From the NCBI RefSeq assembly GCF_041886205.1, contig NZ_CP169029.1: 64,000 bases of DNA, one strand, 5' to 3'. This document shows positions 24,871-41,666 of this stretch, piece after piece. Both the position numbers and the translations under genes were made by a program. The DNA is from Escherichia coli. GTDB lineage: Bacteria; Pseudomonadota; Gammaproteobacteria; Enterobacterales; Enterobacteriaceae. The notes under the pieces are model-generated. The model ran no database searches. It was not told where the DNA came from and saw only the letters and a program-made list of their open reading frames with translations. The stretch's first letter is position 1. Each line of letters starts with the position of its first letter.

Positions 24871-25389
24871 ATGACGATTCTTGAAGAAATGGAAGCAGAA
24901 GCATGGCATATCCTAACAACCATCTATACGTATCAGCGGTTGATGGAAGGCCTTACTAATAGCAGTACAAGATATGAGCTTGCCAATCAGTTGGTAGCCC
25001 TCAATGCATTGTTGGAAATGTTGGTGATCCGTTTAGCGCGTCTTGCGGATAAAAGGAAAGATGTGAGATCTGTATCAATGTTTTTGAAACGCGGCTCGTA
25101 TTCTGCTTCACCAGAGGCTGTGAAATTGGCAGCTGAAAAGTTCCTTGCACTCACAGAACCAGTATTAAAGATTAGGCATGAGCAGATTGCACATATGAAG
25201 CCCGGCACACTCAGTAGCTTCGAGCCTCGAGAACTTCCAAATGAAGCTCTGAGAGCAACTGAGGCTCTAATCGATCTCATTGACATTGCCAGAGGTCACC
25301 CTCAGTCTTACACATACCGAGTTGGCTCACAGGAGCCTGCCATTAATTTGAGAGCTTCAGTAGAGACTAGCGAACTAGTTAAAATCTAA
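24871..25389 (+). CDS. Hypothetical protein, 172 aa, possible HEPN-like R-x5-H motif
   Basis: ORF in AT-rich DNA; contains KIRHEQIAHMK; no family recognised; convergent with the 459-aa gene. Confidence 0.5.
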   Translation: MTILEEMEAEAWHILTTIYTYQRLMEGLTNSSTRYELANQLVALNALLEMLVIRLARLADKRKDVRSVSMFLKRGSYSASPEAVKLAAEKFLALTEPVLKIRHEQIAHMKPGTLSSFEPRELPNEALRATEALIDLIDIARGHPQSYTYRVGSQEPAINLRASVETSELVKI

Positions 25390-25411
25390 TAATTCACTCA
25401 AGTCTATGCTA

Positions 25412-25439
25412 CTTTGCCGAGTTGCTTTACTCGGCAAAG
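25412..25439. terminator. Hairpin between convergent genes (bidirectional terminator candidate)
   Basis: Perfect 11-bp stem CTTTGCCGAGT / ACTCGGCAAAG with 6-nt loop. Confidence 0.5.
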
Positions 25440-25525
25440 TAATTAGCTCCCCGTTAATAACAGATCCGGCAGCCCCTCAACCTTTTTGCTTAAGTGAATA
25501 TATTTTCACAATATTTCCTACTGCT

Positions 25526-26905
25526 TCAGTCATAAAATTTATTTTTGCCTTTTGACGTCATGAGAAGGAAATATGAAGGGTGACTCTTTATTTCTGAAGA
25601 GTGGCTTGTTATACTAAAAACCTCTTTTAGAATCGTAAAGGCTCCTGTAGCCAACGACACTGGATTTGGTGCCCCAATAAAACCTATCAATGATGGCGCA
25701 ATGTTAAGAAAAAGTTCTTTATTACTTTTCCGCTTATAGGTCTGTATTTTTTGCTCAATATCGGTCAATCCTTCATCCCATATGCGCTCGACAAAATGCT
25801 GATTTATCAGCTGCCTCTTATATGGGTCACTTTCTGCTTCTATGTCATACGCAGCTTCACGTAGCACAGAGCGGAAGGCATTAAAACTCGATTCGTAGTC
25901 AGTTCTAATTTTGTAGAGTTCACTTGGAGTAAGCCCCTCTAGAAATGGAACGTCAATAGAGAGTTTAACCCTCTGAACTTCATTCCTTTGATCCAGTTTA
26001 CGAAGAATTTCTCCATGAAATGGGCAATATGCGCCCAGGGACGCTCTGCATGAATGCGCTTGGTTAAGATCAGTAATAAGGTTTTTATAATGAAAGAGAA
26101 CTGTACGATTTTTTGCTCCCTGCACCCACCGTTCATAACTTTTTTTTCCGCTATGCTTTCCCATGACAATTTCCATAGACATGGTACCATCATCATTATC
26201 AATGGCATTATTTATATGTTGATACATATATCCATTTGTATACGAGCTTTCGCAGCCTTTAATTTTCAACATAATTTCATTCGTTAAAACATTTCTGTTT
26301 AACAACCGAATTTTATTTGTGTTGCCCAGACGTTCTATATTCTGTACGGATAGTCTACTTTCATACAGACGGGCAATATTAGGGGGGAGATATCGAAATA
26401 GGAAATTAGTATCAGAGTTATCTTCTAAAATTCCATTAGCTCTCTCCGAATCTTTAATAGAGGATTCTCTTCGTACAAAAACGATAAACTCTCCACGGAT
26501 AAGATCAAAGTTTTCTTTAGCAAACCTGATAAACCTAGCAATTTCCTTCCTGAGATGTTCAACCTTCTCTTTGCTATCGCTTTCAATAAATTTTTCAACT
26601 ACGTTTTCTGATAGATTTACCCTGTATCGTAGGCTCAATGAATATAGAACGTCATCAAGAATGACTCTGTCCATTGAAAACAAACCACTCTTATACCTTT
26701 CAATATTACGATTCCCCGCCATGTAAACATTCAGCCGGGACTCCTGTACAGAATTTGTTTGTTCGATAATGAATGAATCTATCCTTTTATTATATTCAGC
26801 TAATTCAACTAGCAATTCGTTCAATCCGATATTTTCATATTCCTGTTCTAAAAGTCGATCAACCCAAAAAAGGCTTTCTGTGAGCGCATAGAGGTTGTTG
26901 TACAT
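25526..26905 (-). CDS. Hypothetical protein, 459 aa, no recognisable domain
   Basis: Long uninterrupted ORF in visibly AT-rich DNA, Lys/Glu/Asn-rich, no TM segments; sits between the GTPase and the type I RM operon. Confidence 0.6.
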   Translation of the reverse strand: MYNNLYALTESLFWVDRLLEQEYENIGLNELLVELAEYNKRIDSFIIEQTNSVQESRLNVYMAGNRNIERYKSGLFSMDRVILDDVLYSLSLRYRVNLSENVVEKFIESDSKEKVEHLRKEIARFIRFAKENFDLIRGEFIVFVRRESSIKDSERANGILEDNSDTNFLFRYLPPNIARLYESRLSVQNIERLGNTNKIRLLNRNVLTNEIMLKIKGCESSYTNGYMYQHINNAIDNDDGTMSMEIVMGKHSGKKSYERWVQGAKNRTVLFHYKNLITDLNQAHSCRASLGAYCPFHGEILRKLDQRNEVQRVKLSIDVPFLEGLTPSELYKIRTDYESSFNAFRSVLREAAYDIEAESDPYKRQLINQHFVERIWDEGLTDIEQKIQTYKRKSNKELFLNIAPSLIGFIGAPNPVSLATGAFTILKEVFSITSHSSEIKSHPSYFLLMTSKGKNKFYD

Positions 26906-27857: not shown

Positions 27858-28094
27858 TTGAACCTGATACCACATTTAGCTAATTTAGCTAACTTATCCA
27901 GTATACCAGTGGTTGCCATGAATATGAATGAAGACGAGATTTATCGTCATATCCGGCAGGCACTTTCCAGTGCGCCGCGTAACCAGTACACCGTCGAGCT
28001 GCACCTGCAAATGATTAAATATGCCGACGAACTGGAACACATTACGGCAAAAGCCTTTTGCGAAGGCACCGGTCTGAATACCGATCTGCTGTAA
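27858..28094 (+). CDS. Small hypothetical ORF upstream of hsdM
   Basis: 78-aa ORF (possible internal start MNMNEDEIYRHIRQ...) ending 40 bp before hsdM; no family recognised. Confidence 0.25.
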   Translation: MNLIPHLANLANLSSIPVVAMNMNEDEIYRHIRQALSSAPRNQYTVELHLQMIKYADELEHITAKAFCEGTGLNTDLL

Positions 28095-28133: not shown

Positions 28134-30572
28134 ATGGCTATCAAAAAAACCGAACTCTATTCTTCCCTGTGGGCAAGCTGCGACGAACTGCGTGGCGGGA
28201 TGGACGCCAGCCAGTACAAAGACTATGTACTGACCCTGCTGTTTATGAAGTACGTTTCCGATAAGTATAAAGGCGATCCTTACGGGATGATCGTGATACC
28301 CAAAGGAGCCAGCTTTGACGATATGGTTGCGCTGAAAAATGACAAAGAGATCGGCGATAAAATCAACAAAATCATCCACAAGCTGGCGGAAGAGAACGGC
28401 CTGAAGGGCGTCATCGACGAAGCCGACTTTAACGACGAAGATAAACTCGGCAAAGGCAAGGAAATGATTGACCGCCTGAGCAAGCTTGTCGGTATCTTTG
28501 AAGGGTTAGATCTCTCCAGCAACCGGGTCGAAGGCGACGATCTGCTGGGCGATGCCTATGAATATCTGATGCGTCACTTCGCAACCGAATCCGGCAAGAG
28601 TAAAGGACAGTTTTACACTCCGGCGGAGGTGTCACGTATTCTGGCAAAGGTGATTGGTATTACTCCCGATACGCCGCGAGATGCAACGGTTTATGACCCA
28701 ACCTGTGGCTCTGGTTCGCTGCTGTTGAAAGTGAATGATGAAGCCCGGCGCGGACTGTCGATTTTCGGCCAAGAGATGGATAACGCTACCAGTGCGCTGG
28801 CGCGGATGAACATGATTCTGCATAACAATGCCACCGCGAAAATCTGGCAGGGCAATACGCTGAGTGATCCGCAGTGGAAAGAGGCGAACGGCAAACTGAA
28901 AGCCTTCGATTTTGCCGTGGCGAACCCGCCTTTTTCCAATAAAAACTGGACCAACGGGCTGACGCCGAAAAAAGATCCGTTTGAACGCTTCGGCTGGGGT
29001 ATTCCGCCGGAAAAAAACGGCGATTATGCTTTTTTGTTGCATATCATTAAAAGCCTGAAAAGTACCGGCAAAGGCGCGGTGATCCTGCCCCACGGCGTAC
29101 TGTTTCGCGGTAACGCCGAAGCGAATATCCGTGAAAACCTAATCAAGCAGGGCTATATCAAAGGCGTTATTGGTTTGCCAGCCAACCTGTTTTACGGCAC
29201 CGGCATCCCGGCGTGCATCATTGTGATTGATAAAGAGCACGCCCACAGCCGCAAAGGCATTTTTATGATCGACGCCAGTCGGGGCTTTATCAAAGATGGC
29301 AACAAGAACCGCCTGCGTAGCCAAGATATTCACCGTATTGTGGACGTGTTCAACCATCAGCGAACGGTGCCAGGCTACAGCCGGATGGTGCCCTCCAGCG
29401 AGATCGCCGGGAATGATTACAACCTGAATATTCCTCGTTATATCGAGAGTGGAGAGCCGGAAGATTTGCACGATCTGACCGCGCACTTACAGGGCGGTAT
29501 TCCAGTGCGCGATGTAGATGCTTTGAAGGATTACTGGCGGGTATTCCCTGCCCTGCGTAATGTGCTGTTTGCTGACGACCACCCCGGTTACTGCCGGGCG
29601 CAAGTGGACGCGCAGCAGGTGAAACCGACCATTCTGGCTCATCAGGAGTTTAAGGATTTTGCCACCCGCAGCCTGCTACCGTTTAAGTCGTGGGTAAAAG
29701 AGGCAGGTCTGGAAGAGATCCGCAAAGGAGATAAACCCAAAGCGCTAATCCACGATATCAGCGAAATGCTATTGGCGCAGTACGCCAACAGTGAGTTGCT
29801 GAACAAATACAGCGTGTACCAGATCCTGATGGATTACTGGGCTGATGTCATGCAGGACGATGTGTATGTGATTATGCAGGATGGCTGGAAAGCCGCCGCG
29901 CAAATCCGCGAGCTTCAGCCGGTGAAAGGCAAAGATGGCAAAAACATCTGGAAAGAAACGCACGATTTCGAGTTTACCAAACGGCGCTACAAGGCCGATG
30001 TGCTGCCCCGTTCGCTGGTGGAAATTCGCTGTTTCCCGGAACTGCTGGATGCGCTGAACCGCGCGCAGGAGCGCAGTGAAGAAGCCAGTCGTCAGCTAGT
30101 GGAATTCATCGAGGAGCAGGCAGGGGAAGAGGATCTGCTGGCTGAGGTGAAAAACGATAAAGATAAGGTGACGCAAAAGCTGGTGAATGCCCGTCTGGCA
30201 CAGTTGAAGCCCCCCCCTGCCGACCCGGATGAGCTGGCAGTGCTGAACCGCTGTCTGGCGCTGATTAAGGCCGAGGCCAGTGCGAAAAAAGCGCTGAAAG
30301 CCGCACAGGAAGCGTTGGATCGAGCGGTATTTAAACATTATCCCACGCTGGATGAAGCAGCGATTAAAACGCTGGTAGTGCAGGATAAGTGGCTGGCAAC
30401 GTTGCAGGCAGGGATCAAAGCGGAGATAGAGCGTATTACCCAGCAACTGGCGTCGCGCGTAAAGGAGCTGGAAGAGCGTTATGCTGAACCGTTGCCAGCA
30501 CTTGAAGCCGCCGTTGAGGCGTTGAGCGAGAAAGTGGCCGGGCATTTGCGGGCGATGGGGCTGGAGTGGTGA
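28134..30572 (+). CDS. hsdM: Type I restriction-modification system methyltransferase subunit M with long C-terminal extension
   Basis: 812 aa; HsdM N-terminal domain (MAIKKTELYSSLWASCDELRGGMD), AdoMet motif VYDPTCGSGSLL, catalytic NPPF (FDFAVANPPFSNKNW); about 300-aa Ala/Glu/Lys-rich helical tail. Confidence 0.9.
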   Translation: MAIKKTELYSSLWASCDELRGGMDASQYKDYVLTLLFMKYVSDKYKGDPYGMIVIPKGASFDDMVALKNDKEIGDKINKIIHKLAEENGLKGVIDEADFNDEDKLGKGKEMIDRLSKLVGIFEGLDLSSNRVEGDDLLGDAYEYLMRHFATESGKSKGQFYTPAEVSRILAKVIGITPDTPRDATVYDPTCGSGSLLLKVNDEARRGLSIFGQEMDNATSALARMNMILHNNATAKIWQGNTLSDPQWKEANGKLKAFDFAVANPPFSNKNWTNGLTPKKDPFERFGWGIPPEKNGDYAFLLHIIKSLKSTGKGAVILPHGVLFRGNAEANIRENLIKQGYIKGVIGLPANLFYGTGIPACIIVIDKEHAHSRKGIFMIDASRGFIKDGNKNRLRSQDIHRIVDVFNHQRTVPGYSRMVPSSEIAGNDYNLNIPRYIESGEPEDLHDLTAHLQGGIPVRDVDALKDYWRVFPALRNVLFADDHPGYCRAQVDAQQVKPTILAHQEFKDFATRSLLPFKSWVKEAGLEEIRKGDKPKALIHDISEMLLAQYANSELLNKYSVYQILMDYWADVMQDDVYVIMQDGWKAAAQIRELQPVKGKDGKNIWKETHDFEFTKRRYKADVLPRSLVEIRCFPELLDALNRAQERSEEASRQLVEFIEEQAGEEDLLAEVKNDKDKVTQKLVNARLAQLKPPPADPDELAVLNRCLALIKAEASAKKALKAAQEALDRAVFKHYPTLDEAAIKTLVVQDKWLATLQAGIKAEIERITQQLASRVKELEERYAEPLPALEAAVEALSEKVAGHLRAMGLEW

Positions 30573-31921
30573 TGGTGGATTTAATGGTGAATGAGCAACG
30601 GTCGGGTACGGCGGGGAAAGATGTGCCTGCGGGGTATAAGCTGACTGAGGTGGGGGTGATTCCTGAGGATTGGGTAGTAATCTCTATTGATGACTGTACA
30701 ACCAAAGTTGGTAGTGGAAAAACACCAACTGGTGGAGCATCTGTTTATATTGATAGCGGACGCCCTTTTGTCCGTAGCCAAAATGTTGATTGGGGAAGAT
30801 TAGATCTCGCCGATGTCGTACATATTACAGATGAAACCCATAACACATTCTCTGGTTCTGAAATTCAGCAAGATGATGTTTTACTCAACATAACGGGAGC
30901 ATCTATCGGCCGATGCGCTAAAGCTGATTTTAGGGTTATAGGTGGTAATGTTAACCAACATGTTTGCATCATCAGAACAGAGGCAAAAAAACTCTCCCCA
31001 TCCTTACTGGTTGAATTAATCAATTCAAATTATGGACAAAACCAGATTGATAGTTATCAAGCCGGAGGAAACAGAGAAGGACTGAATTTTTCTCAAGTTA
31101 AAAATCTTAAGTTTGCTATTACACCAAACTCCTTTGAACAAACGGAAATTGTCAGAACATTAAATGATATTAATGCATTTACTCTCGCTCTGGAAAACTT
31201 AATTGCTAAAAAACAGGCCATAAAAGCCGCTGCTATGCAACAACTACTTACCGGTAAAACCCGTTTGCCACAGTTTGCGTTGCGCAAAGATGGCTCTGCT
31301 AAGGGATATAAAAAGAGCGAGTTGGGGGAGATTCCTGAAGATTGGAATTGTATTAATCTTGGTGAGCTAGGTAATTGCATTATTGGGTTAACTTACAAAC
31401 CTGAAGATACATCTGATTATGGTACATTGGTATTACGCTCATCCAACATTCAAAATAATCACTTAGCTTATGATGATAACGTCTTCGTCAGCATAGAACC
31501 ACCTGAGCGCACAATTGTGAAAGAAGGTGATATCTTGGTATGTGTAAGAAATGGCAGTCGCCAACTTATTGGCAAATGCGCATTAATTGACAAAAATGCG
31601 CAGGGCTCAGCATTCGGTGCATTTATGTCAGTATTCCGAACTGATATATATGGATTTACATTTCACCAATTCCAGTCTGATATTATTCAAAAGCAAATCG
31701 CTGAAGTTATGGGTGCCACTATCAATCAGATAACTAACAAAGATATGTTGGGCTTTAAAATCCCATTACCTGAAAATACAGAAGAACAAGCCGCCATCGC
31801 CGCCATCCTCTCCGATATGGACAAGGAAATCCAGATCCTGCAACAGCGTCTGGACAAAACCCGCCAGCTTAAGCAAGGGATGATGCAGGAACTGTTAACC
31901 GGGAAAATCCGCTTAATATAG
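30566..31921 (+). CDS. hsdS: Type I restriction-modification specificity subunit S
   Basis: 451 aa; two target-recognition domains each followed by conserved helical repeats (QAIKAAAMQQLLTGKTRLP and QAAIAAILSDMDKEIQILQQRLDKTRQLKQGMMQELLTGKIRL); start overlaps hsdM stop. Confidence 0.9.
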   Translation: MVMVDLMVNEQRSGTAGKDVPAGYKLTEVGVIPEDWVVISIDDCTTKVGSGKTPTGGASVYIDSGRPFVRSQNVDWGRLDLADVVHITDETHNTFSGSEIQQDDVLLNITGASIGRCAKADFRVIGGNVNQHVCIIRTEAKKLSPSLLVELINSNYGQNQIDSYQAGGNREGLNFSQVKNLKFAITPNSFEQTEIVRTLNDINAFTLALENLIAKKQAIKAAAMQQLLTGKTRLPQFALRKDGSAKGYKKSELGEIPEDWNCINLGELGNCIIGLTYKPEDTSDYGTLVLRSSNIQNNHLAYDDNVFVSIEPPERTIVKEGDILVCVRNGSRQLIGKCALIDKNAQGSAFGAFMSVFRTDIYGFTFHQFQSDIIQKQIAEVMGATINQITNKDMLGFKIPLPENTEEQAAIAAILSDMDKEIQILQQRLDKTRQLKQGMMQELLTGKIRLI

Positions 31922-31933
31922 AAGGGAAAGCAC

Positions 31934-32590
31934 ATGGCTTATGATTACAGCGCCAGCCTCAACCCGCAAAAAGCTCTGATCTGGCGTATCGTCCATCGGG
32001 ACAATATCCCGTGGATTCTGGATAACGGGCTGCACTGCGGCAACAGTCTGGTGCAGGCGGAAAACTGGATCAATATCGGCAACCCGGAGCTGATCGGCAA
32101 GCGTGCCGGGCATCCGGTACCTGTCGGAACGGGCGGGACACTGCATGACTATGTGCCGTTTTATTTTACCCCCTTCTCGCCAATGCTGATGAACATCCAC
32201 AGCGGGCGCGGCGGCATTAAGCAACGCCCCAATGAGGAGATCGTTATTCTGGTCAGCAACTTGCGAAACGTGGCAGCACACGACGTACCCTTCGTGTTTA
32301 CCGACAGCCATGCTTACTATAACTGGACCAACTACTACACCAGTCTGGATAGTCTGGACCAGATCGACTGGCCCATTTTGCAGGCACGGGACTTTCGCCG
32401 CGATCCAGACGATCCGGCTAAATTTGAACGCTATCAGGCAGAGGCGCTAATCTGGCAACACTGCCCGATCTCTCTGCTGGATGGGATAATTTGTTACAGC
32501 GAAGAGGTCAGGTTACAATTAGAACAATGGCTGTTTCAGCGTAATCTAACAATGTCCGTTCACACACGGGCTGGATGGTACTTCTCATGA
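31934..32590 (+). CDS. darT: DarT-like ssDNA ADP-ribosyltransferase toxin (DUF4433)
   Basis: 218 aa; motifs [30 protein letters not shown] and QAEALIW align by eye with DarT family; RBS GAAGGGA upstream; 16-bp overlap with darG. Confidence 0.85.
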
Positions 32591-33654
32591 TCACATATAC
32601 ACAAGGCAATTTACTGGACGCACCGGTGGAAGCTCTGGTGAATACGGTTAATACCGTCGGTGTCATGGGGAAAGGCATCGCGTTGATGTTTAAAGAGCGC
32701 TTCCCCGAAAATATGAAAGTCTATGCCCTCGCCTGCAAACAAAAGCAGGTGATCACCGGCAAAATGTTCATTACCGAAACCGGGGAACTGATGGGACCGC
32801 GCTGGATTGTTAATTTTCCGACCAAACAGCACTGGCGCGCTGATTCCCGCATGGAGTGGATTGAAGATGGCTTGCAGGACTTACGCCGCTTTTTGATTGA
32901 AGAGAACGTGCAGTCCATCGCCATTCCACCACTGGGCGCAGGCAACGGTGGTTTGAACTGGCCGGACGTTCGGGCGCAGATTGAATCTGCCCTTGGCGAC
33001 CTTCAGGACGTTGATATCCTGATTTACCAACCGACTGAAAAATACCAGAACGTTGCCAAAAGCACTGGCGTAAAAAAGCTCACTCCCGCCAGAGCCGCCA
33101 TCGCTGAACTGGTGCGTCGCTACTGGGTATTGGGGATGGAGTGCAGCCTACTGGAAATCCAGAAACTGGCCTGGCTGTTACAACGCGCCATTGAGCAGCA
33201 TCAACAGGACGATATCCTCAAACTGCGGTTTGAAGCTCACTATTATGGCCCCTATGCGCCCAATCTGAACCATCTGCTTAATGCGCTGGACGGCACCTAT
33301 CTTAAAGCCGAGAAACGCATCCCGGACAGCCAACCGCTGGATGTGATCTGGTTTAACGATCAGAAAAAAGAACACGTTAATGCGTATCTGAACAACGAAG
33401 CCAGAGAGTGGCTACCTGCGCTGGAGCAGGTCAGCCAGTTAATTGACGGCTTTGAATCGCCGTTTGGTCTGGAGTTGCTGGCAACCGTAGACTGGTTGCT
33501 GAGCCGTGGCGAATGTCAACCAACGCTGGATTCCGTTAAGGAAGGGCTGCACCAGTGGCCTGCGGGCGAACGCTGGGCCAGCCGTAAGTTGAGGCTGTTT
33601 GATAATAATAATCTGCAATTTGCCATTAACCGCGTAATGGAGTTCCATTGCTGA
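32575..33654 (+). CDS. darG: DarG-like macrodomain antitoxin (ADP-ribosylglycohydrolase)
   Basis: 359 aa; N-terminal macrodomain ([36 protein letters not shown]) plus C-terminal domain; translationally coupled to darT. Confidence 0.85.
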
Positions 33655-33672
33655 GGGTTTAAGGAGCGCCTT

Positions 33673-36600
33673 TTGAGTACCGTGGGCCAGCGCGAACGCG
33701 CCACACAGCAGCGTCTGATTCAGTTTTTTGTTGAAGATTTAGGTTACCGCCATCTGAGTCACCGCACCGGGTACACCGGGAACAGCAACATCGACACTAA
33801 TATACTGAGCGCGTGGCTAAAACGGCGCGGCGTTAATGATACGTTGATCACCCGGGCGTTGCGGCAACTGGATTCCGCCGCCGCTCTGGGCGAAGGCAAA
33901 AAACTCTATTACGCCAATAAAGAGGTCTATCGCCTACTGCGTTACGGCGTGAAAGACAAAGAAGGCGCAGGCGAGCAGAACCAAACCGTGTGGCTGATTG
34001 ACTGGGCCAACCCACAAGCCAATGATTTCGCCATCGCCGATGAGGTGACGGTCAAAGGCGAGTACTGCAAGCGCCCGGATCTGGTGCTGTACGTTAACGG
34101 CATTGCGCTGGGCGTGATTGAACTTAAGCGTTCGTCAGTGCACGTCAGCGAAGGCATCCGGCAGAATCTCGATAATCAAAAGAAAACCTTTATCCGCGAT
34201 TTCTTCACCACTATGCAGTTAGTGATGGCGGGCAACGATACGCAGGGCCTGCGCTACGGCACCATCGAAACCCCGGAAAAATACTATCTGGAGTGGAAAG
34301 AAGATAATCCAGGCGACTATACACATAAACTCGACTTTCATTTAAGTCGTCTGTGTAGCAAATCCAGGCTGTTGGATATCGTCCATAATTACATTGCCTT
34401 TGATGTCGGGGTGAAAAAACTCTGCCGCCATAATCAGTTCTTCGGCGTCGAGGCGGCTAAACAACATATTGCCCGTCGTGAAGGCGGTATTATCTGGCAC
34501 ACACAGGGATCGGGTAAAAGCCTGACGATGGTCTGGCTGGCGAAGTGGATCCGTGAAAATGTGCCAAACTCCCGCGTGTTGATTGTGACTGACCGCACCG
34601 AACTGGATGAACAGATCGAAAGCGTGTTTATGGGCGTGAATGAAGATATTTATCGCACCTCCAGCGGCAACGATCTTATCGCAACGCTCAATCATCCTAA
34701 CCCGTGGCTCATTTGCTCGCTGGTGCATAAATTTGGTCGTCGCAGCGAAGCTGAAGACAATGCAGCTACCGACGCCTTTATCACCGAATTACAGCACTCC
34801 CTGACGAAAACATTCCGCGCCAAAGGCGATCTGTTTGTTTTTGTGGACGAGTGCCACCGCACACAATCCGGCAAGCTGCATAACGCCATGACTGCCATTC
34901 TGCCGGACGCCCTGTTTATCGGTTTTACCGGCACACCGCTGATGAAGAAAGATAAGAAGAAGTCGGTTGAGGTGTTCGGCCCTTATATCCATACCTATAA
35001 ATTTGATGAAGCGGTGGCCGACGGTGTGGTGCTGGATCTGCGCTACGAGGCACGCGATATTGACCAGTATCTGACATCAGAGAAAAAGGTCGATGACTGG
35101 TTTGAAGCCAAGACTCGCGGTTTGTCGAATTTAGCTAGGACCCAGCTTAAGCAAAAGTGGGGATCAATGCAGAAGCTGCTCTCCAGCAAGTCGCGGCTGG
35201 AGCAGATCGTTAACGACATTTTGCTGGATATGGATACCCGTCCACGCCTGATGGACGGGCGCGGCAACGCCATGCTGGTATGCAGCAGTATCTATCAAGC
35301 CTGCAAGGTTTACGAGATGTTCAGCCAGACCGAGCTGGCAGGAAAAGTAGCGATTGTGACCAGCTATCGCCCCGATGCCGCCAGCATCAAAGGCGAAGAA
35401 ACGGGCGAAGGGTTAACGGAGAAACTCTCTAAACACGCCACCTATCGTAAAATGTTGGCTGACTATTTTGAACAAAGTGAAGAGAAGGCCGCCGCACGCA
35501 TTACCGAGTTCGAGCGGGAAGTGAAACAGCGTTTTATTGAAGAGCCGGGGCAAATGCGCCTGCTTATCGTGGTGGATAAGCTGCTGACTGGCTTTGACGC
35601 GCCGTCCGCCACCTATCTCTACATTGATAAAACCATGACCGACCATACGCTGTTTCAGGCGATTTGTCGGGTGAACCGGCTGGACGGTGAGGATAAAGAG
35701 TATGGCTATATTATCGATTATAAAGATCTGTTCCGTTCGCTGGATAAAGCGATTACCGATTACACCACGGGCGCGTTTGATGATTACGATCGGGACGATG
35801 TGGCCGGGTTGCTGAAAGACAGGCTAGAGCAGGCGCAACTGGATCTCGACAGCGCGCTGGAGATGGTTCGCAGCTTATGTGAACCCGTCAAAACCCCGCG
35901 CAGCCTGCAGGACTATCAGCACTATTTTTGCGGTGAATCAGGAGAGAATCAGACTTCGTTAAACGAAAAAGAGGCGCTGCGCCTGACATTTTACCAGTGC
36001 GTCGCCCGTCTGCTACGCGCTTATGCCAACATCGCCAATGAAATGCCGGAAGCAGGCTACACTGCCGAAGAGGTAGAGAGCATTCGCGCCGAAGTCGCTG
36101 AATTCGAAAAACTGCGCTATGAGATTAAGCTGACCAGCGGCGATCTTCTGGATATGAAGCGCTTTGAACCCGCTATGCGTCATTTACTGGATATGTATGT
36201 TCGCGCCGATGATAGCGAAGTGCTGATGGATTTTGAAGAGTTAAGTCTGATTGAACTGATTGTCGAGAAAGGCTTGGCGGCGACCGTCGCCCTGCCGGAT
36301 GATATCCGTAATAATCAGGATGCGATGGCGGAAACCATCGAAAACAACGTGCGCAAAACCATCGTGGATGAAAACCCGGTTAACCCAAAATACTATGGAC
36401 GCATGTCGCAACTGCTGGATGAACTGATTACCCTTCGCCGACAAAATGCGCTCAATTATCAGCAGTATCTGGAACGTATCCGCGATTTGTGTAAACAGGT
36501 CATCCGCCCGGAGCAAACCGCCGGAGCGTGCTACCCTGCCACCATGGATACACAAGCAAAGCGCGCCTTCTATGATAACTTCGGCCACGACGAGGTACTG

Positions 36601-36768
36601 GCGACCCGCATAGATACGACGATTCGCTATACCAAAAGGGCAGAGTGGATTGGCGATCGTTTTAAAGAACGGGAAATTGCCAACGCATTACGTGAAGAGA
36701 CCGCCAGCTATAATATTGATATTGATGAGGTGATAGCGCTTGCCCGTCAGCAGAAGGAATATCACTGA
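33673..36768 (+). CDS. hsdR: Type I restriction enzyme endonuclease/translocase subunit R
   Basis: 1031 aa; helicase motifs GSGKSLTM (Walker A) and FVFVDECHR (DEAH-like), N-terminal nuclease region; probable TTG start at 33673 preceded by AAGGAG. Confidence 0.9.
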   Translation: MSTVGQRERATQQRLIQFFVEDLGYRHLSHRTGYTGNSNIDTNILSAWLKRRGVNDTLITRALRQLDSAAALGEGKKLYYANKEVYRLLRYGVKDKEGAGEQNQTVWLIDWANPQANDFAIADEVTVKGEYCKRPDLVLYVNGIALGVIELKRSSVHVSEGIRQNLDNQKKTFIRDFFTTMQLVMAGNDTQGLRYGTIETPEKYYLEWKEDNPGDYTHKLDFHLSRLCSKSRLLDIVHNYIAFDVGVKKLCRHNQFFGVEAAKQHIARREGGIIWHTQGSGKSLTMVWLAKWIRENVPNSRVLIVTDRTELDEQIESVFMGVNEDIYRTSSGNDLIATLNHPNPWLICSLVHKFGRRSEAEDNAATDAFITELQHSLTKTFRAKGDLFVFVDECHRTQSGKLHNAMTAILPDALFIGFTGTPLMKKDKKKSVEVFGPYIHTYKFDEAVADGVVLDLRYEARDIDQYLTSEKKVDDWFEAKTRGLSNLARTQLKQKWGSMQKLLSSKSRLEQIVNDILLDMDTRPRLMDGRGNAMLVCSSIYQACKVYEMFSQTELAGKVAIVTSYRPDAASIKGEETGEGLTEKLSKHATYRKMLADYFEQSEEKAAARITEFEREVKQRFIEEPGQMRLLIVVDKLLTGFDAPSATYLYIDKTMTDHTLFQAICRVNRLDGEDKEYGYIIDYKDLFRSLDKAITDYTTGAFDDYDRDDVAGLLKDRLEQAQLDLDSALEMVRSLCEPVKTPRSLQDYQHYFCGESGENQTSLNEKEALRLTFYQCVARLLRAYANIANEMPEAGYTAEEVESIRAEVAEFEKLRYEIKLTSGDLLDMKRFEPAMRHLLDMYVRADDSEVLMDFEELSLIELIVEKGLAATVALPDDIRNNQDAMAETIENNVRKTIVDENPVNPKYYGRMSQLLDELITLRRQNALNYQQYLERIRDLCKQVIRPEQTAGACYPATMDTQAKRAFYDNFGHDEVLATRIDTTIRYTKRAEWIGDRFKEREIANALREETASYNIDIDEVIALARQQKEYH

Positions 36769-37484
36769 TGCCAATCATGCAAATAGGCTCGTTACACTTG
36801 CTGGTCAACCGTAAGGCGATTAAGAATCTGCATATCAGCGTGCTGCCGCCTGATGGCAAAGTCCGCGTTTCAGCGCCGGAACATATGACGGAGACGGCGA
36901 TTCGTATGGCGGTTGCTTCACGCTTTCGCTGGATCAGAAAACAGCAGCAGGATTTCGCCAGACAGCCTCGTCAATCAGAGAGGGAAATGGTCAGCGGAGA
37001 GTGCCACTATCTTTGGGGCCGAAGATATCGCCTACTTGTGATTGAGCGTCACGGGCGTCACGAAGTAAAAGTTGCGGGAAATAATAAGCTCCAGCTTTAT
37101 GTTCAACCGGGAACCCGTGATGAAAATAAGGCATTGGCGTTAAGTGAATTTTATCGACATGAACTAAAACAGCAGGTGGCTAAGCTTCTACCTGAATGGC
37201 AGGACCGAATCGGTGTTCCCCTAACATTCTGGGGCATCAAAAAGATGAAAACCTTTTGGGGCACCTGTAACACTACAACAAAACGAATCTGGCTCAATCT
37301 GGAGCTAATTAAGAAGCCGCCGGAGTGTCTGGAGTATATTCTGGTGCATGAACTGGTTCATCTTCTGGAACGTCACCATAATGCTCGCTTCCGGTTGCAT
37401 ATGGATCGGTTTATTCCTGACTGGCGTGAGCGTCGGGATTTGTTAAATAATATGCCGTTAGCGTTTGAGGCATGGGAGTATTGA
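36768..37484 (+). CDS. M48/DUF45-family zinc metallohydrolase (YgjP/WLM-like)
   Basis: 238 aa; HExxH motif in ILVHELVHLLERHHNARF; start overlaps hsdR stop, indicating co-transcription. Confidence 0.7.
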   Translation: MPIMQIGSLHLLVNRKAIKNLHISVLPPDGKVRVSAPEHMTETAIRMAVASRFRWIRKQQQDFARQPRQSEREMVSGECHYLWGRRYRLLVIERHGRHEVKVAGNNKLQLYVQPGTRDENKALALSEFYRHELKQQVAKLLPEWQDRIGVPLTFWGIKKMKTFWGTCNTTTKRIWLNLELIKKPPECLEYILVHELVHLLERHHNARFRLHMDRFIPDWRERRDLLNNMPLAFEAWEY

Positions 37485-38273: not shown

Positions 38274-38609
38274 TCAATTTTCGTATTTAAATTCAATATT
38301 AATCTTTAAAGCCTCTACATCTACTGTCACTTCACAGCCATGCCAGAATGGTTTTTCCTGAGATTTAAAGTTATCTAGAAAATAATTTCTTAATTCCACA
38401 AGAAAATCAAATAAATCACCGTTTGCTTGTGCCCCTGCCGAAAACCAATCAGTATTGCCAGTATCTGCATTTATATAGTCAAATTCACATTTACAATGAT
38501 CATTTTCAGGAGACAGTTCTGCTCTCATGATCACTTTGGATGCATTTTCAGGCGCAATGGATAGCAATACTGAACCTATATCATTATAAATCTCTTGATC
38601 AGTCCTCAC
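38274..38609 (-). CDS. Putative CdiI-type immunity protein of orphan module
   Basis: 111-aa ORF whose ATG directly follows the stop of the VENN-containing toxin fragment; no family recognised, assignment by gene context. Confidence 0.5.
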   Translation of the reverse strand: MRTDQEIYNDIGSVLLSIAPENASKVIMRAELSPENDHCKCEFDYINADTGNTDWFSAGAQANGDLFDFLVELRNYFLDNFKSQEKPFWHGCEVTVDVEALKINIEFKYEN

Positions 38610-39038
38610 CTACTTACCTCCGGGTACATTTTTAAACGTTTCAGATACCGGCCTTATGCTGTTACCTGTATAAGATGGCTGGATATTAACTTTAATGCTC
38701 ACTATCCCTGACTCATCCATCTGCTGCATCAACAGAACGGATAAGTCATTCTTCATTGCCCACGGAATATCTTCACCCAATGCCCTGTCTATGGCTTCGT
38801 GAACCAACAAACTGTTAGCAGGGATGTCACCGTACTTCTCTTTGCAGGCTGTCGGGCTCGAAGCACATGTTGCGATCAGTTCATTACGCTGCTTGAGACT
38901 CAGATCTTCCATTTCTTTCACGATCTGACCACAGTCACCACGGGCCTCACAACCTTTCGCCCTCGCCGCAAAGTTATCGATCTGATCAGCACTCAGGTAG
39001 TTATTCTCAACAACAATCCCAACTAAAAGGGTTGGGAT
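38610..39038 (-). CDS. Orphan CdiA C-terminal toxin fragment (VENN motif, no N-terminal region)
   Basis: Reverse-strand frame opens after TAA-TGA stops and reads IPTLLVGIVVENNYLSADQIDNFAARAKGCEARGDCGQIVKEMEDLSLKQ...; VENN encoded at 39000-39011; only an internal ATG. Confidence 0.6.
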   Translation of the reverse strand: MPTLLVGIVVENNYLSADQIDNFAARAKGCEARGDCGQIVKEMEDLSLKQRNELIATCASSPTACKEKYGDIPANSLLVHEAIDRALGEDIPWAMKNDLSVLLMQQMDESGIVSIKVNIQPSYTGNSIRPVSETFKNVPGGK

Positions 39039-39039
39039 T
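39013..39039. repeat. Hairpin at junction of the two toxin/immunity modules
   Basis: AATCCCAAC-TAAAAGG-GTTGGGATT between the stop of the 147-aa gene and the VENN fragment. Confidence 0.4.
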
Positions 39040-39047
39040 CATTACCC

Positions 39048-39491
39048 TTATGTATAAAGACTATCGTCGTAGGGTGCTTCAGTCAGAATTTTTTGAATTT
39101 CATGTCGTGCTTTTAGCTCCCATGAAAGATTCATATTTGCCATTAACTCAATAAATTTTGGGAACGCGATACGTCGTCCATCTCTGCCTTTAACCCTGTG
39201 TTCTAATTCATATTGGAATGCTGTCTTATAAGCGAGTTCTGACATGATCCAATAAAGTAGCTCATCTAGTGACCTAGTAACCTTCCGCGAGAATTCATAA
39301 CCTCTTTCTGAATGAATGTAATTATATACATTGTTTTCAAATGTAACATATGGTGTGCCATCACCAATTGGAGCGGAACAAAGATTAACTGAATGTCTTG
39401 GGAGACCAGCTTGCAAGGTCAACGCGTCAATTTTCCTTTGTATTTCATTGATATTCAGCAACATATTAGCGAACCTCACGAATATATCCAT
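39048..39491 (-). CDS. Putative immunity protein of upstream orphan toxin module
   Basis: 147-aa ORF whose start overlaps the 3' end of an upstream start-less toxin-like frame by about 26 nt. Confidence 0.45.
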   Translation of the reverse strand: MDIFVRFANMLLNINEIQRKIDALTLQAGLPRHSVNLCSAPIGDGTPYVTFENNVYNYIHSERGYEFSRKVTRSLDELLYWIMSELAYKTAFQYELEHRVKGRDGRRIAFPKFIELMANMNLSWELKARHEIQKILTEAPYDDSLYT

Positions 39492-39747
39492 TCTTCAATA
39501 GCCATTCCACATTCACTCGATCTTGCATATTAGGTAATATCTGAATCCCCCCTCCAGGCTCACCAAAAGCGGGGGCAATCTTTCCTTGTATAGCAGGCAA
39601 GGGTTTTATTACCTCATATTCATAGTATTTATATGAACGCATCCCGTTTGCAAGGCATCCATTGTTTTGACATGACGGGTAGGTTGCAGCTTTATATCCG
39701 GCTTTATTGCAGCCGTAACGCTGCGAGCCCCTATGTAATTCGCCGAC
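39466..39747 (-). pseudogene. Truncated toxin C-terminal domain remnant (no start codon)
   Basis: Hand translation of the reverse strand gives an open frame of about 93 codons (VGELHRGSQRYGCNKAGYKAATYPSCQNNGCLANGMRSYKYYEYEVIKPLPAIQGKIAPAFGEPGGGIQILPNMQDRVNVEWLLKNGYIREVR) bounded upstream by TGA and adjacent to the IS110-family element. Confidence 0.35.
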
Positions 39748-39904
39748 TCACCCCTTATTTTCACGGCGGACTTCAAGCCCAAAATACTGTTCAGGTTTAG
39801 TGAGTCACGGTCTTACCTGTCTTTGTCATCACTCTGGCCGCCATAGCAACCTTTCAGCATTCACCCTTTTGTTAAGAGTTCATTGTTTAATGGTATCAGC
39901 GATT

Positions 39905-40056
39905 AATATGGTCTGATACTGACGTGGTTCCTGTCATACTTACGGTCATGGGCGGTTATCGCCCATACTGTTCGTGCCAGCTTGTTTGCCATGGCGACGA
40001 TTGCCACACTGGCTGGACGACGTTTTTTCAGTTCGGTTATCCACGGGCCAGGCTCT
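39905..40056 (-). pseudogene. IS110-family transposase, 3' part (separated from 5' part by IS66 insertion)
   Basis: Reverse translation reads EPGPWITELKKRRPASVAIVAMANKLARTVWAITAHD..., in frame with the 289-aa fragment at 42760-43629 once IS66 and one copy of the 8-bp duplication are removed. Confidence 0.6.
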
Positions 40057-40094
40057 TTAGCTACGTAAGCGACTCGTCAGAACCGTATTGATAT

Positions 40095-41666
40095 TTACTG
40101 AGAGCTCAGATCAACTTTCCAGGGCAACAGATCGCGTACCCGGTTTGCCGGCCAGTCCTGGATATGTTCAATGACGTAACGCAGCCACTTTTCTGGCTCC
40201 ACATTGTTCAGACGGCATGTGCCGATCAGCGAGTACAACACCGCCGCATGTTCACCACCGCTGTCGGAACCCGCGAACATCCAGTTTTTCCGGCCTACGG
40301 CCACTCCCCGTAAGGCGTTCTCTGCGATGTTGTTGTCGATTTCCACCCAGCCATTACTGCAGTACACGTTCAGTGCATCCCACTGTTTCAGCAGGTATGC
40401 GAACGCTTTTGCCGTATCTGAGTGACGCGACAGTGTTTTCATCTGTTGCTGTATCCAGTCATACAGTGACTGCATCAGTGGCGCGGCTCTGGCTTTTCTT
40501 GCCGCCAGACGCTGTTCTGCTGAACAGCCCCGGACCTCTGCCTCGATGGCATACAGTTCACCGATACGCTGCAGGGCTTCCGTGGTGATGTAGGTGGACG
40601 CTCTTGCATGCACATCGTGGATTTTTCTCCGGGCATGAGCCATACACGCGGCTTCCGTTATTCTGCCGGATTCGTATAACGCCCGGTAACCACCGTAAGC
40701 ATCGGCCTGAAGCACACCGCTGTAACCGGCCAGGTGATTTTGTGGATGGATACCTTTCCGGTCCGGACTGTACGCGAACCAGACCGCCGGGGGCATCTGT
40801 GAACCGGCGTTACGGTCATCACGGACGTAGACCCACAGCCGGGCTGTCCGGGTTTTACCGCTGCCCGGCTCCTGGACCGGGACGGGGATATCATCAGCAT
40901 GGACTTTACCGGGCATCAGCACATACTGGCGCAGGACGTCATACAGCGGCTCCAGCAGTTCAGCAACAGCACCTGTCCAGCGCCCCAGTGTGGCACGGCT
41001 CAGCTCCACTCCCTGACGACGGTATATTTCTGACTGGCGGTATAACGGCAGATGGTCTGCATATTTCCCGGTGACAACATGGGCCAGAAGCCCCGCTCCG
41101 GCATAACTGCGTGCAATGGGTTTTGAAGGTACTGGTGCCTGCACGATATGGTCGCACCGGCAACAGGCCTGTTTCGGACGTTGTGTTTCGATAACCTTAA
41201 AGGCGCTGCTGATAAGCTCCAGTTGCTCTGACACATCACATCCCAGAGAACTGAGTTCACCACCACAGGCAGGACAGCATTCCTCTTCCGGCCGGATAAC
41301 CCGGGTTTCACGGGGAAGTGAGGCCGGTAACGGTTTACGGGCTGAAGACTGGCGCAGGGCGGATGGCAGTACCGGGTCATATTGCTCACCCAGCGTTTCC
41401 GCCATTTCTTCCTGAAGTGCGCTGATTCGCTCCTGTGCTTCCTGTATCTGCCGTTCGGTTTTTGCACGAAGTTTTTCTGAGCTTTTACCGAACTGCATAC
41501 GTTGCAGTTTCGCAACCAGCGCCTTCAGCCGGTTGATTTCGGAAGCATAAGCCGCCACCCGCTGTGAGAGCAGGCGGTTGTATTCAGCCATCTGGCGGAT
41601 GGTGTCCTGTTGCGTCTGCAACAGTGCCCGCAGGCGGGCGTTCTCATGAGCAAGTGAGGTGTCCAT
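40095..41666 (-). CDS. IS66-family transposase (TnpC/orf3)
   Basis: 523 aa with N-terminal coiled-coil/leucine zipper, Cys-rich zinc-binding segment and DDE region. Confidence 0.9.

Follow-up and report, generated by a model that had tools for sequence, protein, structure and literature searches.

We analysed a window of 64,000 nucleotides of Escherichia coli DNA (contig NZ_CP169029.1), in which six genes at 28134–37484 had been proposed to form a composite defence operon. This region is very probably a copy of the published E. coli RRDM (RptR-RMS-DarTG2-M48) defence island. In the reading that we favour, with a probability of about 0.9, the locus consists of a type I restriction-modification (R-M) backbone, a DarTG2 cassette located in a cargo slot between hsdS and hsdR, and a YgjP-like gene at the end. 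The locus is not new: it has been published, it is annotated by the Prokaryotic Genome Annotation Pipeline (PGAP) and it has been partly characterised. The window carries a mutant rptR allele of the RRDM island and not a separate system. The six genes are as follows.

28134–30572, + strand: hsdM, type I methyltransferase, long form, 812 aa
30572–31921, + strand: hsdS, specificity subunit, with the PGAP start at ATG 30572
31934–32590, + strand: darT, DNA ADP-ribosyltransferase toxin of DarTG2
32587–33654, + strand: darG, macrodomain ADP-ribosyl-glycohydrolase antitoxin, with the PGAP start at 32587
33673–36768, + strand: hsdR, restriction/translocase subunit, 1031 aa, TTG start with AAGGAG 7 nt upstream
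36768–37484, + strand: YgjP-like zinc metallopeptidase gene ("M48 family"), 238 aa, PF01863

The prototype is the RRDM locus of enteropathogenic E. coli (EPEC) E2348/69, an anti-phage island with seven open reading frames (ORFs) (Zhang et al., NAR 2025; PMC12255303). The synteny expected for RRDM, rptR-hsdM-hsdS-darT-darG-hsdR-M48, is found in the window, with the gene order, the junctions, the -35/-10 promoter and the TAGCTA operators being the same as in EPEC. Five of the six proteins are 98.6–100% identical to those of EPEC (locus L002 in our data set), namely DarG (100%), M48 (100%), HsdR (99.4%), HsdM (99.3%) and DarT (98.6%), and the protein accessions of DarG (WP_000634203.1) and M48 are the same as in the published island. 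The window differs from EPEC in its HsdS, which is only 39.7% identical, in having two operator repeats as compared to three, in a 69-bp in-frame deletion in rptR by which helix α4 is gone, and in the content of flanking insertion sequence (IS) elements. E. coli ZYB62 matches the 9.35-kb region at 100% identity, and many O157:H7 genomes do so at 99.9%. Among 5,426 complete genomes of E. coli, 247 contain 80% or more of the region, and the PGAP annotation of the matching genome covers all six genes.

The original prediction had placed six co-directional ORFs in this region, and these are present at the positions that it gave, with names and order that agree with the family profiles and with the EPEC match. 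Its reading of the genes as a composite defence operon agrees with the published, experimentally tested island (PMC12255303). The six ORFs are real, but the unit was drawn too narrowly, since the prototype has seven ORFs, and rptR together with the promoter and operators (27858–28094) lies outside the coordinates of the prediction. When cloned with its own promoter, the seven-ORF island of EPEC reduced the plaquing of Trib and Baz by more than 10^7, of lambda-vir and TB34 by approximately 10^4 and of T7 by 10^3, and hsdM mRNA increased more than 15-fold upon infection (PMC12255303).

Profile searches assigned each of the R-M subunits. HsdM matched TIGR00497 (2e-83, 280.8 bits; cut-off 242.75) and, over its full length, the PADLOC profile MTase_I PDLC03027 (1–810 of 810). 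HsdS matched PADLOC Specificity_I (9.5e-134) over positions 9–450, and HsdR matched both TIGR00348 (546.2 bits; cut-off 284.55) and PADLOC REase_I PDLC03044 (1–1011 of 1034). Separate genes for HsdM, HsdS and HsdR are thus present in one cluster, as expected of a type I R-M system. In such systems, methylation of the host's sites is the task of HsdM2S, and the HsdR2M2S complex translocates along DNA that lacks the modification and cleaves it.

The HsdS protein is the part of the island that differs most from its EPEC counterpart. The identity between the two alleles is concentrated at alignment positions 1–50, 201–250 and 401–466, corresponding to the N-terminal, central and C-terminal framework, and both target-recognition domains differ, in an island that is otherwise 98.6–100% identical. 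The G+C content dips to 0.40 at 31001–32000. Swapping of target-recognition domains is usual in HsdS. Because both domains have been swapped, the HsdS allele of the window probably confers a recognition sequence different from that of EPEC.

The toxin-antitoxin cassette was identified with similar certainty by the family profiles. DarT scored 262.6 bits against NF048013 (cut-off 150) and matched PADLOC DarT at 1.9e-74, and DarG scored 451.1 bits against NF048014 (cut-off 250) and is identical to DarG2 of EPEC. The arrangement of DarTG2, a darT gene followed by an overlapping gene for a DarG with an N-terminal macrodomain, is found here. The targets of ADP-ribosylation by DarT are thymidines in single-stranded DNA, and replication is blocked once DarG no longer restrains the toxin. 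As in the DarTG2 systems of Thermus aquaticus, M. tuberculosis and EPEC, both proteins are above the NCBIfam equivalog cut-offs. The proteins themselves show no difference, whereas the genes form an embedded cassette here rather than a free-standing pair. Phage defence by DarTG2 was the subject of LeRoux et al. 2022, a study cited in PMC12255303. Among the related loci described below, a second DarT-like ORF of 86–191 aa was observed directly upstream of darT-darG in four species (L007:4516–5111, L008:3879–4474, L032:4589–5178 and L065:2490–3065), that is, tandem DarT paralogues with one DarG; the second copy in L065 matched PADLOC DarT at 4e-38.

The regulatory region of the island lies immediately upstream of hsdM and contains two features.

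27858–27895, + strand: island promoter/operator, located from the sequence, the site positions and the EPEC alignment
27924–28094, + strand: rptR deletion allele, 56 codons as compared to 79, from alignments with EPEC and strain 2014C-4135

In EPEC, the sigma70 promoter upstream of rptR consists of TTGAAC, 14 nt and AGCTAATTT, and a dimer of the 79-aa RptR binds to TAGCTA palindromes and represses the promoter, for which two sites suffice (PMC12255303). The window contains the -35 box TTGAAC at 27858–27863, a 14-nt spacer and the -10 box AGCTAATTT at 27878–27886, and this spacing is identical to that of the functional EPEC promoter. Two TAGCTA palindromes are present, at 27877–27882 and 27886–27891, in agreement with the expectation of at least two sites that overlap the -10 box.

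The rptR gene has lost 69 bp in frame between 9-bp direct repeats (CCGGTCTGA), the junction copy of which is located at 28069–28077. The 23 deleted residues, about 50–72 or 52–74, make up the whole of helix α4, and a remnant of 56 aa is left. An intact 79-aa RptR with helix α4, as expected for RRDM, is accordingly not present in the window, where a search for a second rptR also found none. In the EPEC protein, α4 provides the DNA contacts T57–K61 and the dimer contacts L65, R68, L69, A72 and L74, and the mutants S60G and L74R show the importance of α4 residues (PMC12255303). PGAP flags rptR as a pseudogene in a genome that is 100% identical. The 69-bp segment is kept in 213 genomes, as compared to approximately 247 genomes with the island, which leaves approximately 34 complete genomes that share the deletion. 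A set of 35 records with identities of 99% or above is in line with this count, and the carriers include many O157:H7. Because α4 has been lost while the promoter and the six downstream genes are intact, with no second rptR in the window, the island is probably unrepressed, and we consider it likely that the six genes are expressed constitutively from the intact promoter. The natural repressor-null allele in these genomes offers a ready-made test of the purpose of RptR repression, and it may affect the phage susceptibility and transformability of the carrier strains, including many O157:H7.

To compare the island with related loci, we used aligned M48 homologues as the query against a set in which each GTDB species was represented by a single genome. 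The search yielded 80 loci from other species, with 55–91% identity, onto which the proteins of the window were mapped; the survey is thus anchored on the M48 homologues. The loci span the Gamma- and Betaproteobacteria, the cyanobacteria, Nitrospina and the Anaerolineae. In 78 of the 80 loci an hsdR gene of the same family ends directly before M48, and 36 share the 1-nt overlap of the window; the exceptions are the decayed L073, the L040 remnant and the orphan L035. The HsdM tail was found wherever hsdM was visible. RptR was detectable in approximately 13 of the approximately 21 loci in which the region upstream of hsdM was present, and DarT and DarG occurred together in about 10 loci. Within E. 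coli itself, an M48 gene likewise follows a distinct hsdR that is found in 32 records at approximately 72% nucleotide identity. Among more distant M48 relatives (36–41% identity), four are located directly after an hsdR whose product is 43–50% identical, two are standalone and one was not assessable. The four distant operons, with M48 at 37–41% identity, encode long HsdM-HsdS-HsdR-YgjP with an HsdM of 816–891 aa, and their HsdM tails are homologous over the full length (25–28% identity, E down to 1e-49).

The interval between hsdS and hsdR measures 0.2–6.3 kb, and 57 of 60 loci hold 0.8 kb or more there. The cargo in this slot is almost entirely co-directional and consists of recurrent modules: paired DUF262/HEC-06/SspE-like proteins in 19 loci, a TrlF-family AAA ATPase with a partner protein in 11 loci, a PDC-S02 nuclease, Fic/PDC-S04, a four-helix-bundle protein with a 194-aa partner, and DarTG. 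Two cargo types at this position have been noted previously, and M48 was a conserved neighbour cluster in an RptR-anchored analysis (PMC12255303). Embedding in type I R-M has been described in general by Payne et al. 2024, with PrrC being almost exclusively R-M-embedded. Since the peptidase and the HsdM tail are constant across loci while the cargo of the slot varies, they belong to the R-M lineage and not to DarTG. Thus, this old R-M lineage has four parts that are inherited together, the long HsdM, HsdS, HsdR and the YgjP-like peptidase, and DarTG is one interchangeable insert in it. The co-occurrence of hsdR with DUF45/M48 genes, which had been suggested as a comparative check, is therefore conserved in the M48-anchored loci, whereas the idea that the tail and the M48 gene are features of this particular composite is not borne out, as both are constant in a widespread type I R-M lineage.

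The core of HsdM, residues 1–449, consists of the Pfam domains HsdM_N and N6_Mtase. The tail comprises residues 450–812 (nt 29481–30569), has an isoelectric point (pI) of 5.6 and contains 40% Ala+Glu+Lys in its last 120 residues. The 812-aa HsdM with an Ala/Glu/Lys-rich tail, as described in the original prediction, is thus real; the domain search proposed for the tail gave no match in Pfam, and a sequence search of the PDB found no relative of residues 450–812. An alignment showed that the tail is conserved across 40 species. It contains a proximal module with an invariant YQILMDYW...QDDVYV...QDGW, followed by a variable middle and a near-invariant C-terminal helix (AEIERVTQQLANRVKELEERY...HLKAMGLEW). 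We agree with the earlier assessment that the tail and the metallohydrolase are unexplained, and the M48 gene is named in PMC12255303 without being tested there.

The product of the sixth gene matched the YgjP-like family PF01863, formerly DUF45, at 1.6e-61 over model positions 5–206 of 207, with a weaker match to SprT-like (4e-6). As a family name, M48 is a loose annotation label: the profile of Peptidase_M48 (PF01435) gave E = 0.1 and does not support the assignment. The M48 family proper (Ste24/HtpX type) usually consists of membrane-associated HExxH...E proteases. Searches of NCBIfam and PADLOC found no family for the M48 protein. The zinc motif is H194-E195-xx-H198-x5-H204 (HELVH at 194–198), and the residues H194, E195, H198 and H204 are invariant in all 75 homologues. 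The AlphaFold model, which is a confident one (predicted local distance difference test score, pLDDT, 89.4), suggests a minimal zincin fold, with SPRTN and Wss1 among the top fold matches and with CapP and IrrE also among the matches. The HExxHx5H site in a minimal zincin fold, as in SprT/Wss1 proteases, is therefore found in the predicted structure. A sequence search of the PDB with the M48 protein returned just borderline matches to minigluzincins (E 0.1–0.5). The protein family is uniformly basic (pI 9.5–10.4), as compared to a pI of 5.6 for HsdR and the HsdM tail. The literature that could be searched contained no functional study of R-M-linked YgjP-like proteins, and the restriction-related matches were false positives (DUF450). 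Makarova et al. reportedly linked COG1451 to type I R-M in 2011.

Lone YgjP-like proteins with 36–37% identity were observed beside genes for PmbA/TldD, DNA polymerase I or BatA/VWA (L089–L092), and because such relatives occur in housekeeping neighbourhoods the family is not exclusively linked to R-M. In another set of loci, proteins of 628 and 854 aa begin with the YgjP-like domain (L087/L088:9001–11565, and L093:9001–10887 with L094:8365–10251). These extended proteins come from Firmicutes-type and oral-metagenome loci, start at the hsdR stop codon and have faint matches to Peptidase_M78 and helix-turn-helix domains.

The junctions between the genes were read directly from the sequence. The hsdM/hsdS junction is TGATG, with a 1-nt overlap when the ATG at 30572 is used, and the hsdR/M48 junction is likewise TGATG with a 1-nt overlap. 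The start of darG overlaps the stop of darT in ATGA. The gaps are 12 nt from hsdS to darT and 18 nt from darG to hsdR. The overlaps and spacings noted previously (12 bp, 18 bp, AAGGAG, TTG) were thereby confirmed. The reading frames were also right, but the starts given for hsdS (GTG 30566) and darG (ATG 32575) are upstream in-frame alternatives; the better-supported starts, according to both PGAP and the profile alignments, are ATG 30572 for hsdS and ATG 32587 for darG. Internal promoter-like sites were at chance level (16 as compared to 13.1 ± 3.2 in shuffled controls), and so were internal terminator-like sites (16 as compared to 12.1 ± 3.4). Separate promoters and terminators between the genes, which the prediction had named as evidence that would count against it, were thus not seen in excess of the shuffled controls.

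On the basis of what is established for these protein families, R-M would act as a first layer, with HsdM2S modifying the host sites and HsdR2M2S cutting unmodified DNA. DarTG would provide a second, abortive layer, in which DarT blocks replication when DarG no longer checks it. In our proposal, the peptidase would be a protease directed at the R-M complex itself. It might, for instance, remove HsdR that has stalled on DNA and serve as a built-in restriction alleviation, and the acidic helical tail of HsdM would be a structural arm or a docking surface. We tie the role of the peptidase to the R-M complex because of the conserved overlap and adjacency with the same lineage of HsdR and long HsdM. 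This preferred role rests on linkage, fold and charge and is put forward tentatively; its purpose would resemble that of ClpXP-dependent restriction alleviation, and its chemistry that of SPRTN/Wss1. The full proposal is more doubtful: the peptidase would be a fourth R-M component, a DNA-associated SPRTN/Wss1-like protease that is translationally coupled to HsdR and clears or inactivates stalled HsdR or complexes, with the tail as a docking or regulatory arm and with rptR-null alleles running the island constitutively. If true, this would describe an R-M system with its own mechanism for restriction alleviation or turnover, safe to carry and to transfer.

Several points weigh against our reading of the locus. 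The published protection is that of the whole EPEC island, in which the shares of R-M and DarTG were not dissected, and hsdM was the only mRNA measured, so DarTG or hsdR could have promoters of their own (PMC12255303). Three weak promoter-like sites are located on the + strand in the 3' half of hsdS (31569–31761). We infer derepression from the deletion in rptR, and the 56-aa remnant could still be made; an rptR paralogue located beyond the window could also act in trans. As for the peptidase, the PDB yielded no match to its N-terminal 150 residues, a beta-rich part that includes one long helix, and YgjP-like relatives at 36–37% identity are standalone in housekeeping contexts, so that HsdR need not be the target of the peptidase chemistry. 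In databases YgjP, the homologue in E. coli K-12, is listed as a UTP pyrophosphatase.

The sites within hsdS would suit an arrangement in which the six genes are juxtaposed modules with their own promoters (the methylase genes, darTG and hsdR-M48) and not one operon. Toxin-antitoxin cassettes often have their own promoters, and in 11 of 67 related loci hsdR is preceded by a tandem TTGCTTGAT, which hints at a separate control of hsdR in those loci. This arrangement is unlikely for the window, where the gaps are just 12 and 18 nt and the genes otherwise overlap, where the promoter and terminator matches do not exceed the shuffled controls and where TTGCTTGAT is absent; moreover, the sole promoter demonstrated in EPEC is the one upstream of rptR (PMC12255303). 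The deletion in rptR might instead represent the onset of decay, so that the island is being silenced or lost in the lineage and is no longer an active defence. The pseudogene flag assigned by PGAP, the IS elements and gene remnants that flank the island and the decayed relatives in other species (L010, L040 and L073) are consistent with such a process. Nevertheless, the six downstream ORFs are intact and, except for HsdS, 98.6–100% identical to functional EPEC proteins, the promoter is also intact, and the allele occurs in approximately 34 complete genomes without further damage, which makes decay improbable in our view.

Two other roles of the peptidase have to be weighed against a protease that acts on the R-M complex. 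The YgjP-like protein may be a generic hydrolase, such as a nucleotide pyrophosphatase or a housekeeping peptidase, or an independent effector, for example one that cleaves phage anti-restriction proteins, which merely travels with hsdR. This is a possibility that we take seriously without favouring it, and the existence of standalone relatives is in line with it. It does not readily account for the strict stop/start overlap with hsdR, for an adjacency that is kept from 91% to 37% identity across phyla, for the constant association with the same lineage of HsdR and long HsdM, or for the invariant catalytic motif. The peptidase could also be a signal-responsive protease that destroys RptR upon infection and thereby derepresses the island, similar to the cleavage of CapH by CapP in the cyclic-oligonucleotide-based anti-phage signalling system (CBASS). 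The authors of the EPEC study suggest proteolysis or sequestration as the way in which RptR is removed, citing CapP/CapH, and in their analysis, which was anchored on RptR, M48 forms a conserved cluster of neighbours (PMC12255303); CapP and IrrE are among the fold matches of the peptidase. However, M48 persists in loci that lack RptR or have a dead copy of it, and the obligate pairing with a cognate repressor gene that is typical of CapP/IrrE-type peptidases was not found across the loci. Because M48 is distributed independently of RptR, we rank the cleavage of RptR low and regard it as very unlikely.

Other known systems come close to parts of this locus or of the proposed scheme. EcoprrI-PrrC, a type IC R-M operon in which prrC, the gene for an anticodon nuclease, is embedded between hsdS and hsdR, also has an abortive-infection effector in the hsdS-hsdR position, with a restriction layer first and a suicide layer second. 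It differs in that its effector is a tRNA nuclease held latent by the R-M complex, whereas the effector in the window is a DNA ADP-ribosyltransferase with its own antitoxin. No physical coupling between DarTG and R-M proteins is known, and EcoprrI is not known to have a YgjP-like gene. In comparison with the SPRTN/Wss1 proteases and the archaeal minigluzincins (proabylysin, selecase), the peptidase of the window shows just 12–24% sequence identity and has a distinct N-terminal domain of 150 residues. Support for a DNA-stimulated proteolysis of DNA-bound proteins is indirect and consists of the pI of 9.5–10.4 across the family and of the linkage to a DNA translocase. In the restriction alleviation of EcoKI, ClpXP degrades HsdR that translocates on unmodified host DNA. 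This process, a precedent in concept for a safety valve of type I enzymes that works through proteolysis of HsdR, depends on a general protease of the host, whereas the peptidase considered here is encoded in the operon and its link to HsdR turnover is a proposal. ClpXP-dependent restriction alleviation is mentioned in PMC12255303.

The direct value of the locus is small, as it mainly confirms a published system. The broader point is that the peptidase and the HsdM tail of approximately 360 residues are fixed in one type I R-M lineage across phyla, independently of DarTG and RptR. The question thereby shifts from the use of M48 to a composite island to the use of a dedicated protease to a type I enzyme. 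The catalogue of cargo in the hsdS-hsdR slot supports searches for new defence systems by "guilt by embedding". Several of the cargo clusters (within L004–L083) are without any annotation.

The tandem TTGCTTGAT was present as two copies in an 11-nt register in most of the 11 loci (L016, L019, L020, L022, L025, L038, L041, L051, L058, L064 and L068), at 35–115 nt upstream of hsdR and with any preceding cargo gene, as compared to a background rate of 0.04 matches per 120 nt. It may be an hsdR-specific operator or promoter. The survey also contained an M48 gene with an internal stop in Photorhabdus khanii (L010:10001–10714), an hsdM fragment that abuts a truncated M48 (L073:9832–10585), a locus in which just a 3' remnant of hsdR is kept (L040:9571–10678) and an orphan M48 in Marinobacter gelidimuriae (L035:10001–10714).

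Upstream of the island promoter, hypothetical genes of low G+C content (0.36–0.41) at 24871–25389 (+ strand) and 25526–26905 (- strand) are located between a GTPase/Ag43 block and the island. The hypothetical genes at 24871–26905 and at 38274–39491 had no match in PADLOC. Downstream, at 38274–41666 (- strand), the annotation of the matching genome (L001) shows small hypothetical ORFs, an "immunity 63 family" gene (39048–39491) that adjoins a remnant of a TNT-domain toxin, and an IS66-family transposase (40095–41666). ZYB62 carries an extra insertion of ISEc23 downstream of the island, which the window does not have at that place. The downstream context is that of a mobile, mosaic island.

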